Part shown: piece by piece, positions 12,104 to 61,838 of the stretch
How the letters are laid out: each line of letters opens with the position of its first letter
Numbering within the stretch: the first letter of the stretch is position 1
Source of the DNA: a virus
Lineage: Duplodnaviria; Caudoviricetes
DNA: 64,000 nucleotides
IMG/VR virus record: IMGVR_UViG_3300012208_000004
Coordinates: 556 to 64,555 of that record
Reading direction: 5' to 3' (one strand)
Program-made: the position numbers and the translations under genes
The notes under the pieces: generated by a model
The model's input: only the letters and a program-made list of their open reading frames with translations
What the model was told of the DNA's origin: nothing
The model's database searches: none

Positions 12104-12122
12104 CCCCCTTGCAAGGTGAGAT

Positions 12123-31453: not shown

Positions 31454-32350
31454 ATGCAGTTGGTTATCAGCTATCATGAGGTTAGACTCATGCAAGAAAC
31501 AGGTGAAACACTTGTTATTCACATACCGTACGATGCAGATTTTATAAAGTTATGGTTGCATGGAAAGAGCGATAATACTCAAACGGCATATCTATTAGAT
31601 ATCCATAGATTATATGATTTAATTGGTAAATCTTTGCGTGAATTAACGCTTGACGATTTCCAAGGTTTTACTGATAATCTTTATCATTTAAAGCGCTCTT
31701 CGCGTGCTCGTATTATGGCTAGTGTTAAAAGTGCTTTATCATTTGGCCTAAAGATAGGATATCTACAAGTAAATGTAGGATCTGCTGTAGAACTGCCCAA
31801 ACTGGAAAACAAACTAGCTGAACGGATACTTAGTGAGCAACAGATAGCAAAAATGTTTGCGCTGGAGAATAACCCGCGTAACCATGCTATTTTGATACTG
31901 CTCTATCGGGCAGGATTAAGAGTATCAGAATTGTGTGATCTGACATGGCGTAATCTGCAAGAACGAGATGAAGCTGGTCAAATAGCCGTGTTTGGGAAGG
32001 GCAAGAAAACAAGGCATGTGTTACTTGATCCTGCTACTTGGCAAGAGGTTACAAATCTGAAGACTGAGAAAGCTGGTCCTGATGATTATGTGTTTCAGTC
32101 TAGAAAGGGCAAGTCTCGACTAGATGAGAGCGCTATCCATCGGATTGTAGCTAGTGCTGCAAAGCGGGCGGGAATTAATGATAAGGTTTCGCCTCACTGG
32201 ATGAGGCATGCCCACGCTACCCATGCCCTAGAAAGGGGCGCTCCAATAACCCTAGTACAGGACACGCTAGGGCACAAATCCATGGAGACAACAGCTAAAT
32301 ACACTCACGTCCGACCTAATGCCAGTAGCTCTCAATATTTGGGAATTTAG
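31454..32350 (+). CDS. XerC/D-like tyrosine recombinase
   Basis: GLRVSE, GKGKK, HWMRH, LGH...T.KY. Confidence 0.93.
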   Translation: MQLVISYHEVRLMQETGETLVIHIPYDADFIKLWLHGKSDNTQTAYLLDIHRLYDLIGKSLRELTLDDFQGFTDNLYHLKRSSRARIMASVKSALSFGLKIGYLQVNVGSAVELPKLENKLAERILSEQQIAKMFALENNPRNHAILILLYRAGLRVSELCDLTWRNLQERDEAGQIAVFGKGKKTRHVLLDPATWQEVTNLKTEKAGPDDYVFQSRKGKSRLDESAIHRIVASAAKRAGINDKVSPHWMRHAHATHALERGAPITLVQDTLGHKSMETTAKYTHVRPNASSSQYLGI

Positions 32351-57917: not shown

Positions 57918-59627
57918 ATGGCAATAATGATAGAGCAGGAAACAACAGTAGATTATGACTCGCTAGCAAAAACCTGTATCCTTGGACTGAGAAATGGAAA
58001 AATACCAGAATGGCCGGAAAGTGGATTTGGAGATTTCTGGGAACCAATCATCGCTGAAATTGAACGCTACTCACGCAAATGCAAAAGCAATACAGGGCTC
58101 GTCACTGGCAAAATTGAGAGCATGTATGATACCTATCCTGAGCTCAAAAAATTGCTTGCGCCTAGAATCCCCGTGCAAGGGGGAATGCCACAACAGGAGG
58201 AACTTCCAACGTGTCCGCCGTTACCTGATCATCTCCAGTATCCACCAGAACTAGCTGCTAGTGCGTGCAAATGGCTAGATGACTACATTGCATTTTCCAA
58301 GAAATGGAGCCCAAGGGCACATGATAGCTATCATGAGTGTGTCGCCATGGCATTACTCTCAACGGTAGCTGGACGCCGTGTGTCACTCTCTTACGGCGAT
58401 ATGGAGTACACTCCACTTTTCATAGCGCTTGTTGGCCCCACCACACTATTCGTGAAAAGTACCACACTCAAACTTTACAATGGATTACTTCATGCCGCCG
58501 GACTTGATTGGTTATTGGGCGCGAACATCATCACTCCGCAAAAGCTCCTCTCCAATATGTCAGGTCGGACACTGCCATCGAACTGGGAAGAATTAGACGA
58601 GGATCAACAAACACGCATTAAAAAGCGACTAGCCATGGCCGCGCAAGTGGGATGGTGCTATGACGAATTTGGTATGCAGCTCGATTCCATGGTCAAGGAA
58701 AATGGCATTATGGCCGAATTTAAAGGTTTGCTTCGACTCCTGCACGACTGTAAACCAGTATTTGAATATGACACGCATAGACGCGGGCTCGAACGCATTG
58801 AAAAACCATACCTATCTCTCGTTGCCAGTTTAACACTAGCTGATATTCGGCCATACGCGGAAAAGGGTAATAAGTTTTACCGAGATGGACTATTCGCTCG
58901 TTTCCTCTTTTCTTGTCCTCCCAAAGGGACCAAATCCAAACGGGACCAGTTCCCAAAGGAAAAGCTTACCTACCCAACTGATCTCATTAGTCCCCTTGCA
59001 AGGTGGCATTATTGGCTAGGAGAACCTGAAGTCACCATTGATGATGATTATGGGAAGGACAACAAAACAGTTATCAAGCGAACTATTCGCGTTCTCAAAG
59101 AACTGCCAGAACAAGAATGCATCCTACCCGATGAAATTAGAGACCATATCATTGCCTATGAAAACGCTTTGAAAGATATGATGGAAGCTGAAAATAATCC
59201 CGTGCCGGAAGATCTCTTTGGAAGCTATGGACGCTTCCATATGCAGGCTATCCACATTTGCATGCTACTAGCAAGCTTCGATAACCAGGGACACATCGAA
59301 TTAAGACACTGGGCACGCGCTAGGCAATTCATCGAAAGTCGGCGGGAAGAATTACACGGCATGTACATACAAACCAATACAGCCGATGATGACAAAGAAT
59401 CCTATGAAGATAAAGAAGGAAAGCTGGAGGATTTCATCCTCCAAAAAATGACAGAACTTGCCGACAAAGGGAATGAATGGGTAACTGCTTCTGTTCTCTA
59501 CGCTTACATGAAAAAATCCTCAAGAGAGAAAATAGAGGACAAACTAAAACGATTAACCAAACAAGGAATACTTGAAATAGAACAAACAAAACGAGCTGCA
59601 AAGTTTAAACTCTCATTTGAAGAGTAA
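57918..59627 (+). CDS. DUF3987/YfjI-like replication ATPase with C-terminal winged helix
   Basis: LFIALVG....KST, YDEF, DGLFARFLF; wHTH-like C-terminus. Confidence 0.75.
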   Translation: MAIMIEQETTVDYDSLAKTCILGLRNGKIPEWPESGFGDFWEPIIAEIERYSRKCKSNTGLVTGKIESMYDTYPELKKLLAPRIPVQGGMPQQEELPTCPPLPDHLQYPPELAASACKWLDDYIAFSKKWSPRAHDSYHECVAMALLSTVAGRRVSLSYGDMEYTPLFIALVGPTTLFVKSTTLKLYNGLLHAAGLDWLLGANIITPQKLLSNMSGRTLPSNWEELDEDQQTRIKKRLAMAAQVGWCYDEFGMQLDSMVKENGIMAEFKGLLRLLHDCKPVFEYDTHRRGLERIEKPYLSLVASLTLADIRPYAEKGNKFYRDGLFARFLFSCPPKGTKSKRDQFPKEKLTYPTDLISPLARWHYWLGEPEVTIDDDYGKDNKTVIKRTIRVLKELPEQECILPDEIRDHIIAYENALKDMMEAENNPVPEDLFGSYGRFHMQAIHICMLLASFDNQGHIELRHWARARQFIESRREELHGMYIQTNTADDDKESYEDKEGKLEDFILQKMTELADKGNEWVTASVLYAYMKKSSREKIEDKLKRLTKQGILEIEQTKRAAKFKLSFEE

Positions 59628-59631
59628 AAGT

Positions 59632-60010
59632 AAACTTAGAAAACTTAGAAGAAGTATAGAAACATTCATAGCCTCTGAAGCGGCTTCAGAGGCTATTTTA
59701 TGAGTAACTTAGAAACTTAGAACTTAGAAAAAACCTTAGAGTTACAAAATTTCACCCTGCAAGGGGGGTATGAGATGGCTTGTGTCCTTGTTCTAAGACT
59801 TTCTAAGTTCTTTCTAAGATAGAGTGATCGTGTTGTCCTTACAAATATAGCTATATAACAACTTAGAAATATTTGAGCTTAGTTTTAAAAAAATAAATAT
59901 TTTCTAAGTTCTAAGTTTCTAAGTTACTATAGGGATACCCTACCCCCCTGCATGGGGTATGCATGCATTAGATACATTGACGATTTCTAAATTTTCTAAG
60001 TTATTCTAGG
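59632..60010. repeat. Iteron array (AACTTAGA/TCTAAGTT), putative replication origin
   Basis: About a dozen copies in both orientations; perfect 29-bp inverted repeat 59703-59731 / 59900-59928; AT-rich; directly after Rep-like gene. Confidence 0.75.
59668..59696 (+). terminator. Intrinsic terminator
   Basis: ATAGCCTCTGAAGC/GCTTCAGAGGCTAT palindrome plus T-run. Confidence 0.65.
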
Positions 60011-60071
60011 TTTTTTATTGTTTATGAATACTATCCGACATTTTGCAAAATGCTCAATACAGGTAGAACAG

Positions 60072-60100
60072 TTGCAACATATTTATTGATGTGCTACGTT
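60072..60100 (+). promoter_or_regulatory. Promoter-like element for the tRNA 5' half
   Basis: TTGCAA-17-TACGTT with TG extension, 9 bp before tRNA position 1. Confidence 0.5.
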
Positions 60101-60109
60101 TTCACTATC

Positions 60110-60149
60110 GTTCCCGTAGCTCAGTGGATAGAGCACCGGTCTCCGGAAC
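60110..60149 (+). tRNA. tRNA-Arg(CCG), 5' half
   Basis: GTTCCCG TA GCTC AGTGGATA GAGC A CCGGT CTCCGGA AC: acceptor strand, D arm, anticodon loop; then non-tRNA sequence. Confidence 0.88.
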
Positions 60150-60227
60150 TTCGGGCAACCTAATATGTGTGTCTGGCAAACAAATATCCAAGATTTAGGG
60201 CTTGTAAACACTGCTTTTGAGCTCAAG

Positions 60228-60272
60228 TGTTCCCGACTGGAATCGAACCAGCGCACCCGGTTCCGGAGACCG
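60228..60272 (-). tRNA. tRNA-Arg(CCG), 3' half (attP-like), inverted
   Basis: Minus strand CGGT CTCCGGA ACCGG GTGC GCTGG TTCGATT CCAGT CGGGAAC A; acceptor strand pairs 7/7 with the 5' half. Confidence 0.88.
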
Positions 60273-60350
60273 CGAAAATATTTGTACAGCTTCACAAGCT
60301 GATCTACCCCCTTGCAAGGTGACGCTCAAACAAATGAAAGGTGACCATGG

Positions 60351-61451
60351 ATGGCAAAGAATGTCAGGAAGATAAAAAAGCGTGAGGAGTCAGATGGTTT
60401 CTTAGTCCAGGAGGTCATTCAAGAATATTTAGTATCTCCTCACGTCAAAAATCTTAGTTCTCGTACTCAGGATGAATATCAACAGGAGTTAGGCGTCTTT
60501 TCTGATTGGTGTAAATGCCGTCAGATTGTCAATGAGAAGGGCAAGAGAACGGCTGTATTTGGTGAAGGTCTTATGCTTCACCAGATTGATCAATATAGCA
60601 TTCAGCTCTTCTGTGAGCATCTTCAGGCTACCCACAAGCCGACAAAGAAAAGCCGATCTGAGATATCCAGTTACACGCTGGCTGGGTATGTCCGTGTGAT
60701 TAAATCTTTCCTCAACTGGTGTCTGCTTGATCCTCAATATGGAAATTACACAAGCTCGGCTGTTATCCAGCGAATTGAAAATCCGAAAGTGATAGAGACT
60801 ATCATCGAAACCTTCTCTCCTGAGCAGATCCAGGCTTTATTTAAAGCGTGCGAGAAAGAAGAAAGCGAACATCTCCAGCTACGCGATAAAGCTATCCTTG
60901 CTATCCTGCTCGATTGTGGATTACGCGCGACTGAATGTATCACGCTAACCATAGGAAATGTGTCATTAGATACAAAAGATGCATACGTTCGTGTTTTAGG
61001 CAAAGGCAATAAGTGGGGAGAAGTTGGACTTGGGGAGCAAGCACGTAAATATGTGCAGAAGTATATTCGCGTGTTTCGCATTCCAACAATAGAATACGCG
61101 GTACAACAAAAGCATAAAAACCTATCAGATCGTCAATGCAAACAAATAAGCTTAGAGGTTGTACAGTCGTCTCTGGTGTTTGTGAATAGGTATGGAGAGC
61201 AGTTAACAAAATCAGGACTTTGGAGAATTATCACGCGTTTGTCAGATTGGGCAAGGATTGAAGGTGTACGGTGCTCACCTCACACATTTCGTCATACGTA
61301 CGCGAAAATGTTTATGCAGAATGGAGGTGATATTTACACGCTTTCAAAGCTCCTTAGACACAATTCAATTAAAACAACCGAAGACTATCTTAAATCTCTC
61401 CAGCAAAGTGAAGCAAGGAAAGGGGCCAAGTCAGTACTGGATAATTTGTAG
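60351..61451 (+). CDS. Tyrosine integrase
   Basis: GLRATE, GKGNK, HTFRH, LRH...TTEDY; next to tRNA-derived att core. Confidence 0.92.
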   Translation: MAKNVRKIKKREESDGFLVQEVIQEYLVSPHVKNLSSRTQDEYQQELGVFSDWCKCRQIVNEKGKRTAVFGEGLMLHQIDQYSIQLFCEHLQATHKPTKKSRSEISSYTLAGYVRVIKSFLNWCLLDPQYGNYTSSAVIQRIENPKVIETIIETFSPEQIQALFKACEKEESEHLQLRDKAILAILLDCGLRATECITLTIGNVSLDTKDAYVRVLGKGNKWGEVGLGEQARKYVQKYIRVFRIPTIEYAVQQKHKNLSDRQCKQISLEVVQSSLVFVNRYGEQLTKSGLWRIITRLSDWARIEGVRCSPHTFRHTYAKMFMQNGGDIYTLSKLLRHNSIKTTEDYLKSLQQSEARKGAKSVLDNL

Positions 61452-61516
61452 CACTATTGTGTATTTACCATAAAAGTGGTATACTTTCAAAAGTATTCAT
61501 AAGGATGGTGTTACGC

Positions 61517-61699
61517 ATGCCTGATGCATCTAATGTTTCGTGTTTCATGACAGTGAAGGAAGTATCTCAGCATTTACGGTTGACTGAGAGGACGATTTAC
61601 ACCATGCTTGAAAATGGTGTCATTCCAGGTGTTCAGATTGGGCGCGTGTGGCGTATTGATCGTGAGCAGTTGGATCAAAAGTTGAGAGGGCAAAAGTAG
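61517..61699 (+). CDS. Excisionase-like HTH_17 protein
   Basis: MTVKEVSQHLRL..RTIY....G.IPG.QIGRVWRI. Confidence 0.85.
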   Translation: MPDASNVSCFMTVKEVSQHLRLTERTIYTMLENGVIPGVQIGRVWRIDREQLDQKLRGQK

Positions 61700-61838
61700 T
61701 TTTGTTTGAGCGTCCCCCTACTAGGTCTCAAACACCTTGCAAGGGGACTGACCACGTACATGAGTGAGCATGCACGGGCTAAAGCTAATTGTAGCCTAGT
61801 TCCTGCATGTTTTCAAGTGAAAGGAATTAGGTTTTTTC

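Follow-up and report, generated by a model that had tools for sequence, protein, structure and literature searches.

Transfer RNA (tRNA) genes are the commonest integration sites of phages, and the sites within them reportedly fall into sublocation classes that Williams distinguished in 2002; how a phage attachment site (attP) acquires tRNA sequence, and how its target is switched, is to our knowledge poorly understood. Zhao and Williams are said to have described, in the same year, integrative elements with a reversed orientation relative to the target gene, which supply the 5′ part of the tRNA, and site-specific recombination also underlies invertible DNA switches such as the fim switch, Hin/Gin, and the shufflons. 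In the mycobacteriophages Omega and Ximenita, a tRNA-restoring attP recombines by crossover in the anticodon loop, and Fionnbharth, cluster L phages, and Gaia use tRNA-dependent lysogeny; the authors of the source for both call the evolutionary link between the two integration strategies unclear (Guerrero-Bustamante and Hatfull 2024, PMC10865867). A further precedent, as summarized in PMC5812530, is Pcirc of the integrative and conjugative element (ICE) ICEclc, an outward promoter at the end distal to the integrase gene (int) of this tRNA-integrated element that lies upstream of int only when the element is circular (Sentchilo et al. 2003). Here we analyzed a stretch of 64,000 nucleotides (nt) of phage DNA, referred to as the window, which covers bases 556–64,555 of the 64,555-bp IMG/VR virus record IMGVR_UViG_3300012208_000004 (classed as linear; CheckV 100% complete). 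In the window, a tyrosine integrase gene is preceded by two opposed pieces of one tRNA-Arg(CCG), an arrangement singled out by an earlier inspection without database searches, which we call the sequence-only reading. Searches of the open-access literature returned no account of an attP with an inverted tRNA 5′ piece.

As an interpretation of sequence, we propose with moderate confidence that the locus combines a canonical attP with a conserved inverted module of promoter and tRNA 5′ piece that may act as the int promoter in the circular state. The 5′ piece, read in the sequence as nt 1–40 of the tRNA, occupies 60110–60149 on the + strand and comprises the acceptor strand, the D arm, the 5′ strand of the anticodon stem, and the anticodon loop plus two nt; the 3′ piece lies on the − strand at 60272–60228 and runs from the anticodon stem/loop through the discriminator. 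Both contain the 13-bp core CGGTCTCCGGAAC, which has exactly two copies in the 64-kb window, at 60137–60149 (+) and 60260–60272 (−), against an expectation of 0.01 (two matches were reached in 0/100 shuffles). The two copies form a perfect inverted repeat, I13 in the inverted-repeat listing, with arms 110 nt apart. ARAGORN found no tRNA in the native window sequence; when 60150–60259 was inverted in silico, it called a tRNA-Arg(CCG) of 73 nt with all four stems paired. The description of opposed tRNA halves that share an inverted core, with a complete tRNA rebuilt by flipping the segment between them, was therefore borne out. Likewise, the predicted neighbors are in place: int (60351–61451, + strand, 366 aa; PF00589, E 2.4e-29, with a SAM-like N domain) starts 78 bp from the right core and is followed by a gene for an 80-aa excisionase (Xis)-like helix-turn-helix protein (61457–61699, + strand; PF12728 HTH_17, E 1.2e-12), and homologues come after int in L085 and L080 as well.

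Relatives of the integrase (Int), at most 84% identical, are found in viral contigs from soil, in metagenomes, and in genomes of Ktedonobacteria. Our comparison drew on six loci from IMG/VR, two from species genomes (L008 and L009; a distant 23% match, L010, was left out), the best 80 of 520 integrase relatives in JGI metagenomes, and 169 Ktedonobacteria genomes searched with the integrase, 15 of which had a match at E ≤ 1e-40, six of them at 56–84% identity. Loci were included when int was preceded by a tRNA 3′ piece and sufficient upstream sequence was present. This gave 15 non-redundant loci of the free-phage type (the window, L002, L003, L005, L006, L007, L009, L078, L080, L081, L082, L085, L087, L089, and L095) after removal of L079, L084, and L096, which duplicate L003, L007, and L095, and of L004, in which a contig end cuts the locus. 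In all 15, the tRNA of the 3′ piece is also represented by an inverted 5′ piece 109–209 nt upstream of it, and each of the five integrated relatives in Ktedonobacteria genomes has it within the prophage, adjoining the rebuilt tRNA. Thus, the 5′ piece was found in 20/20 loci with a visible P′ side, at Int identities down to ~43%, and no lineage has deleted it. The sequence-only reading had allowed that related phages might lack this half; all have it, and we regard the feature as real and conserved. Because a phage replication gene sits upstream of the 5′ piece in L085, L080, L002, and L009, as in the window, the 5′ piece is phage DNA. Of these, L009 comes from a contig binned in a "Patescibacteria group" metagenome-assembled genome (MAG) and has the replication gene of the family, the att region, and an int of 79% identity; the binning of this phage contig is probably wrong. 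Only a 3′ piece is present in three loci (L008, L091, and L110), which we read as int-proximal junctions of integrated copies. L008 lies in a MAG labelled as Ktedonobacteraceae, its Int is 84% identical, and the genes upstream are a transposase and a HEPN/NTase pair; a search of this MAG for the contig with the other junction (attL) gave none, the closest 5′-half match being a different Arg tRNA at a contig end. A comparison of 59600–61700 with GenBank phages gave no DNA match, and an exact 32-mer from the spacer between the two pieces retrieved no further viral contig.

Across the family, six tRNAs are targeted (Arg-CCG, Arg-TCT, Arg-TCG, Arg-GCG, Thr-TGT, and Gly-TCC), and the 5′ and 3′ pieces at each locus always derive from one tRNA. 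Arg-TCT appears in three separate parts of the Int tree, one of them within a starred clade that holds the window and otherwise targets Arg-CCG; therefore, both pieces have switched together several times or have moved as a cassette. The sequence-only reading had overlooked that the arrangement spans the family and covaries with the targeted tRNA, as well as the orientation of the candidate promoter ahead of the 5′ piece, via attP toward int.

The chromosomes of G105, G142, and G106 reveal how these elements integrate. In each, a lone 3′ piece adjoins int, a complete tRNA-Arg(CCG) lies 39–62 kb away, and the inverted 5′ piece sits inside the prophage, 100–170 bp from the 3′ end of the complete tRNA. 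The same layout is found for a tRNA-Thr(TGT) prophage in G163 and a tRNA-Gly(TCC) element in G067 (G067:C2). All five integrated relatives (Int 56–59% identical) integrated via the int-proximal 3′ piece, which forms a direct repeat at both prophage ends with the full tRNA at the far end, and the 5′ piece goes along within the P′ arm. The identity blocks in relatives all start inside or just ahead of the anticodon loop, marking the right core copy (60260–60272, − strand) as the probable crossover region, and we judge the earlier placement of the crossover in this loop to be correct. The 3′ piece of the window (60228–60272), the block that would rebuild the host tRNA on integration as it does in relatives, matches two copies in G105 with 100% identity over 45 nt. 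With an adjacent tyrosine recombinase, a host block from the anticodon loop to the 3′ end, and the junctions seen in relatives, the right piece has the properties of a classical tRNA-restoring attP; it functions as one in the relatives and would do so in the window phage. As in Omega and Ximenita, int adjoins attP and has an Xis-like gene for a neighbor, the block of ~45 nt extends from the anticodon loop to the 3′ end, and in the relatives integration restores the host tRNA at the junction distal to int and leaves a 3′ fragment next to int; unlike in those phages, an inverted candidate promoter and 5′ part of the same tRNA lie 80–200 bp past the 3′ end. No examined locus had the mirror layout that recombination at the left core, or a flipped phage, would produce, and integration from the 5′ side, with a host 5′ fragment as direct repeat, was absent from the five prophages of the subfamily. 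An unoccupied host locus (G163:C4) consists of promoter, tRNA, and terminator with no inverted piece. The best explanation of these data is that the window phage is a temperate soil phage and that its host belongs to the Ktedonobacteria (Chloroflexota).

Two other arrangements at tRNA-Arg(CCG) loci were observed. In G067:C1 (2003183–2017274; L051, L041, and L056), a different element, with an integrase 38% identical, supplies the 5′ side of the tRNA: a 5′-half direct repeat is at 2003183, the full tRNA-Arg(CCG) at 2011389 just downstream of int, and a 3′-half repeat at 2017231. In G105:C1 (1384270–1433205; L049, L044, and L039), the tRNA-Arg(CCG) locus is a tandem array with three copies of the 3′ piece, and a second integrase gene, recognized by eye from its C-terminal motif, ends just upstream of the middle copy.

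The candidate promoter in front of the 5′ piece lies at 60072–60100 on the + strand and heads toward attP and int. It consists of TTGCAA (60072–60077), a 17-nt spacer, and TGC-TACGTT (60092–60100), ends 9 nt ahead of the 5′ piece, and is of the extended −10 type; the promoters of host tRNAs in these bacteria are built alike. The motif TGnTAnnnT occurs ≤30 nt upstream of the 5′ piece in 14/19 loci versus 4.6% of control windows. About 60 nt around the motif are conserved among the window, L080, L085, and L009 despite other tRNA pieces, and in L003, L009, and L078 the mutated acceptor bases themselves constitute the −10 box. The geometry is of the Pcirc type, with the candidate promoter at the int-distal end, pointing outward when the element is integrated and toward int when it is circular. 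We suggest the following sequence of events. Int would cross over in the anticodon loop of the host tRNA-Arg(CCG), whose 3′ half would be displaced and replaced by the phage 3′ piece. As long as the phage is circular or infecting, the promoter would read via the spacer and the core into int-xis, and integration would sever it from int and leave it facing outward across attL. Because the candidate promoter points via spacer and core into int-xis and no + strand terminator-like site was found at 59600–60500, int would be driven from it only in the circular genome. The outcome would be strong int expression confined to the non-integrated state, as for Pcirc of ICEclc. The likeness to Pcirc lies in the outward candidate promoter at the int-distal end that is upstream of int only in the circular form; unlike there, the element here is a phage and not an ICE, and the candidate promoter module is fused to the 5′ half of the target tRNA.

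Several points weigh against this proposal. The sequence-only reading had noted a promoter-like element, and what has held up is a motif of the extended −10 type, found again in relatives; a scan of 59600–60500 for strict consensus sigma-70 promoters returned 0 sites, and by our own reading the −10 box of the window fits three of the six consensus bases. The loci positive for TGnTAnnnT include close relatives and represent ~10 independent lineages, and five of the 19 (L007, L087, L089, L095, and G067) are without an extended −10 motif. In lysogens, antisense firing of the promoter into the tRNA gene looks costly. L006 has a near-consensus promoter of its own (TTGACA, 17 nt, TATAGT) ~70–35 nt upstream of int. 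Moreover, the 5′ piece of the window is identical to that of G105 (31/31) and G106 (33/33), whereas the spacers cannot be aligned by eye; therefore, gene conversion or selection is needed to explain this identity, and the promoter role does not account for it. Finally, the proposal does not account for a whole tRNA gene coming to lie inverted beside the core, repeatedly and for six tRNAs. As a separate observation, the promoter insert of L006 occurs in the relative with the most decayed 5′ piece.

The relation of the inverted 5′ piece to host DNA is evident in several genomes. The window copy is identical to the 5′ half of the host tRNA in G105 over 40 nt (100%). In G067, the copy extends over intergenic bases into the upstream tRNA-Pro, of which it has the last 20 nt, the G106 copy has 22 nt of host upstream flank in common, and the G142 copy has a host-specific CATCGG variant in common. 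Judged from its sequence, the inverted 5′ piece is host-derived. The 5′ pieces that we read end at about nt 33–42, at or beside the anticodon loop, with the exception of that in G067, in which clear identity stops at about nt 18. In form, the piece at 60110–60149 is the B-O half of a bacterial attachment site (attB), and, judging by the anatomy, the two pieces look like what one Int-type crossover would leave as its reciprocal products, had the phage core recombined with a complete tRNA transcription unit inverted in cis. Because a tRNA terminator trails the 3′ piece in several relatives, the virtual flipped form would be a whole transcription unit. Simple excision cannot yield this geometry, as the sequence-only reading had correctly argued, and by our own reasoning conservative site-specific recombination by Int alone cannot transfer host arms to the phage. 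On paper, we combined integration, inversion, and excision by Int in search of an origin for the 5′ piece and rejected these combinations, none of which captures host arms.

Outside the window phage, the 5′ piece is often damaged. The left core (60137–60149 in the window), which as an intact core is not kept across the family, is absent or cut short in G105, G142, G106, L005, and L006 and measures 6–12 bp in the other relatives. In L003, L009, L078, and L089 the acceptor has mutations, L006, L007, and L078 have a broken D stem, and a 3-nt loop deletion is present in L005 and L006; altogether, broken stems or a deleted or mutated anticodon loop are found in L002, L003, L005, L006, L007, L009, L078, and L089. 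In our proposal, the tRNA 5′ sequence is mostly a passenger, perfect in the window phage and decaying in other lineages; in lysogens, where a host copy faces it, gene conversion between the two probably keeps it host-like. In L089, two successive nested inverted 5′ remnants of Arg tRNAs lie 260–130 nt upstream of int in one P′ arm, as if this arm had been remodelled twice.

Four other explanations were weighed against the proposed int promoter. A neutral scar is possible, although we think it doubtful: the 5′ piece would be the leftover reciprocal product of a past Int inversion, or would have arrived with an exchanged att cassette, and would have no present function, its host-like sequence being kept by gene conversion in lysogeny. 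The decay in several lineages (acceptor, D stem, and loop deletion, with the core lost in G105, G142, and G106), the nested remnants in L089, and the lysogen copies with host-specific variants and flanks would all be expected of a scar, but a scar explains neither why the 5′ piece was never deleted in the 20 loci with a visible P′ side nor why the promoter motif ahead of it is enriched, and the creation of a −10 box by mutations in L003, L009, and L078 looks selected. A double attP, suggested in the sequence-only reading, would let either core recombine with the host tRNA in either orientation and supply the 3′ half or the promoter and 5′ half. These hosts do contain elements that contribute the 5′ side (G067:C1), and a promoter with a tRNA 5′ part ending at the crossover is also what the reversed-orientation elements are said to have; unlike in those elements, the 5′ part here is unused for integration in the five prophages and coexists with an inverted normal 3′ piece. 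All five subfamily prophages used the int-proximal 3′ core only, many relatives have a degenerate left core or none, and by our reading the candidate accessory repeats are wrongly oriented relative to the left core, so that we consider a double attP very improbable. An assembly artefact, i.e., a mis-join of two contigs via the conserved D-arm of a tRNA, has a negligible chance of being correct. In an independent assembly (Logan contigs of runs X1 and X2, probably from the source sample), 60118–60700 is on a 3,790-nt contig and the sequence up to 60139 on a 60,601-nt contig, and the two break in the 5′ piece and overlap there by only 22 nt, within the tRNA D-arm, where the local word depth is ~1,700 versus ~18 in the flanks. 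Nevertheless, the join is secure because the identical layout occurs in relatives from other samples, and the misassembly that the sequence-only reading had envisaged is ruled out by this layout, which recurs with homologous flanks on both sides in independent assemblies and finished chromosomes.

The fourth explanation, an invertible split tRNA, was the first suggestion of the sequence-only reading, in the form of an ON/OFF switch, and we consider it unlikely. Int, probably with Xis, would flip 60150–60259 between two states, a canonical attP and a complete tRNA-Arg(CCG) gene with a short-core attP, and the benefit could be a source of the tRNA or the rescue of lysogens whose host 5′ and phage 3′ halves misfit; host acceptor stems vary between species (G067 versus G105). 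In the window, the perfect 13-bp inverted core, the perfect cloverleaf after the flip, the promoter ahead, and the trailer behind all fit such a switch, and an inverted core of 8–13 bp is present in 11/15 non-redundant loci with both pieces (window and L005 counted). Virtual flips of the 15 loci gave 11 Arg tRNAs, one Gln call, two abnormal calls, and one without a call in ARAGORN, but the flips were picked for tRNA yield, ARAGORN tolerates mismatches, and these calls are no evidence of function. The flipped form would also match the architecture of tRNA-dependent lysogeny (PMC10865867): the phage has tRNA sequence of the attB isotype, and the virtual flip creates a short-core attP with a complete cognate tRNA gene. 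Unlike in those phages, the native form encodes no intact tRNA, and the 45-nt block rebuilds the tRNA in integrated relatives. The locus resembles invertible switches in its short inverted repeats around a small segment beside a recombinase gene; unlike them, it has a single orientation everywhere and its inverted repeat is not conserved in the family. No flipped form was present in the 15 non-redundant free-phage loci, the five prophages, or the Logan contigs of two runs, and in Logan contigs of four runs, two of them probably the source, no loose end joined the left core to the phage's own 3′ piece, a search of limited power because contigs drop rare variants. By our reading, the left core is without a recognizable forward 3′-type half-site on its right side, and the inverted core is lost or shortened in five relatives. 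CGG is the rarest Arg codon of the phage (4.4 per 1000 codons, 11% of Arg; 65 open reading frames (ORFs)), which makes a supply of the tRNA for phage translation unlikely. A split tRNA of the Nanoarchaeum type was ruled out in turn: with 13 nt of overlap, the halves lack complementary extensions, and the fold of the leader is unremarkable (z −1.34). Neither a conserved tRNA switch nor a double attP is supported across the family, and for the inverted front half a role as leftover and integrase promoter is more probable than one as a functional on/off switch of the tRNA. For the window phage itself, we give only a small chance to a stored tRNA-Arg(CCG) unit that Int, probably with Xis, reassembles by the 110-bp flip and that toggles between a tRNA-restoring attP and tRNA-dependent lysogeny.

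If the inverted module is an int promoter as we propose, it would be a simple design to confine integrase expression to the non-integrated state. An integrase family in which both halves of the target tRNA are present and change together points to a complete tRNA gene in cis that was split by the phage integrase, and such a cis-inversion route would connect canonical integration with tRNA-dependent lysogeny (PMC10865867). Should the flip be active in phages with intact cores, these would have a tRNA gene assembled by a recombinase, of which we found no description; it would allow lysogeny in hosts with a misfitting tRNA 5′ half or supply the tRNA after induction, and it would explain how the two integration strategies evolved from one another.

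The spacer at 60150–60227 corresponds to the P′ arm and contains two direct 10-bp repeats, GCAACCTAAT (60155–60164) and GCAAACAAAT (60176–60185), which are candidate accessory sites for integrase or Xis. This motif has three exact matches in the window, two of them within the spacer, and a copy with one mismatch, the third in the region, is at 60326–60335; with one mismatch allowed, the whole window shows no enrichment (21 found vs 24 expected). The spacers of relatives, read by eye, have two to three analogous direct repeats. The P arm and int leader (60273–60350, + strand) contain, besides the third repeat copy, the palindrome CCCTTGCAAGG at 60309–60319.

This palindrome is not particular to the attachment region. 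It has ~30 sites in the window, with 58 matches on both strands versus 3.8 expected (0/100 shuffles reach 58), for example at 12106, 22877, 31366, 34563, 41631, 45698, 46403, 60309, and 61734, and several sites that we compared with the ORF list fall between ORFs. A role as an arm-type site near int was ruled out by this genome-wide dispersal, and CCCTTGCAAGG may instead be a genome-wide operator, a "stoperator"-like site, or an RNA hairpin motif. Relatives contain the palindrome too (L077, L080, and L085); L077, which was fetched by the palindrome pattern, was rejected as an att site, the sequence being a coding region. Upstream of the candidate promoter, 59630–60020 is densely filled with TTCTAAGTT / AACTTAGAA repeats that run in both directions; among them is a perfect inverted pair of 29 nt. 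This array lies just downstream of a DUF3987/DnaD-like replication gene and is probably an iteron-type origin, and the relatives have analogous arrays of other repeat units. In the middle of the genome, at 31454–32350, there is a second tyrosine recombinase (PF00589) of Xer-like size.

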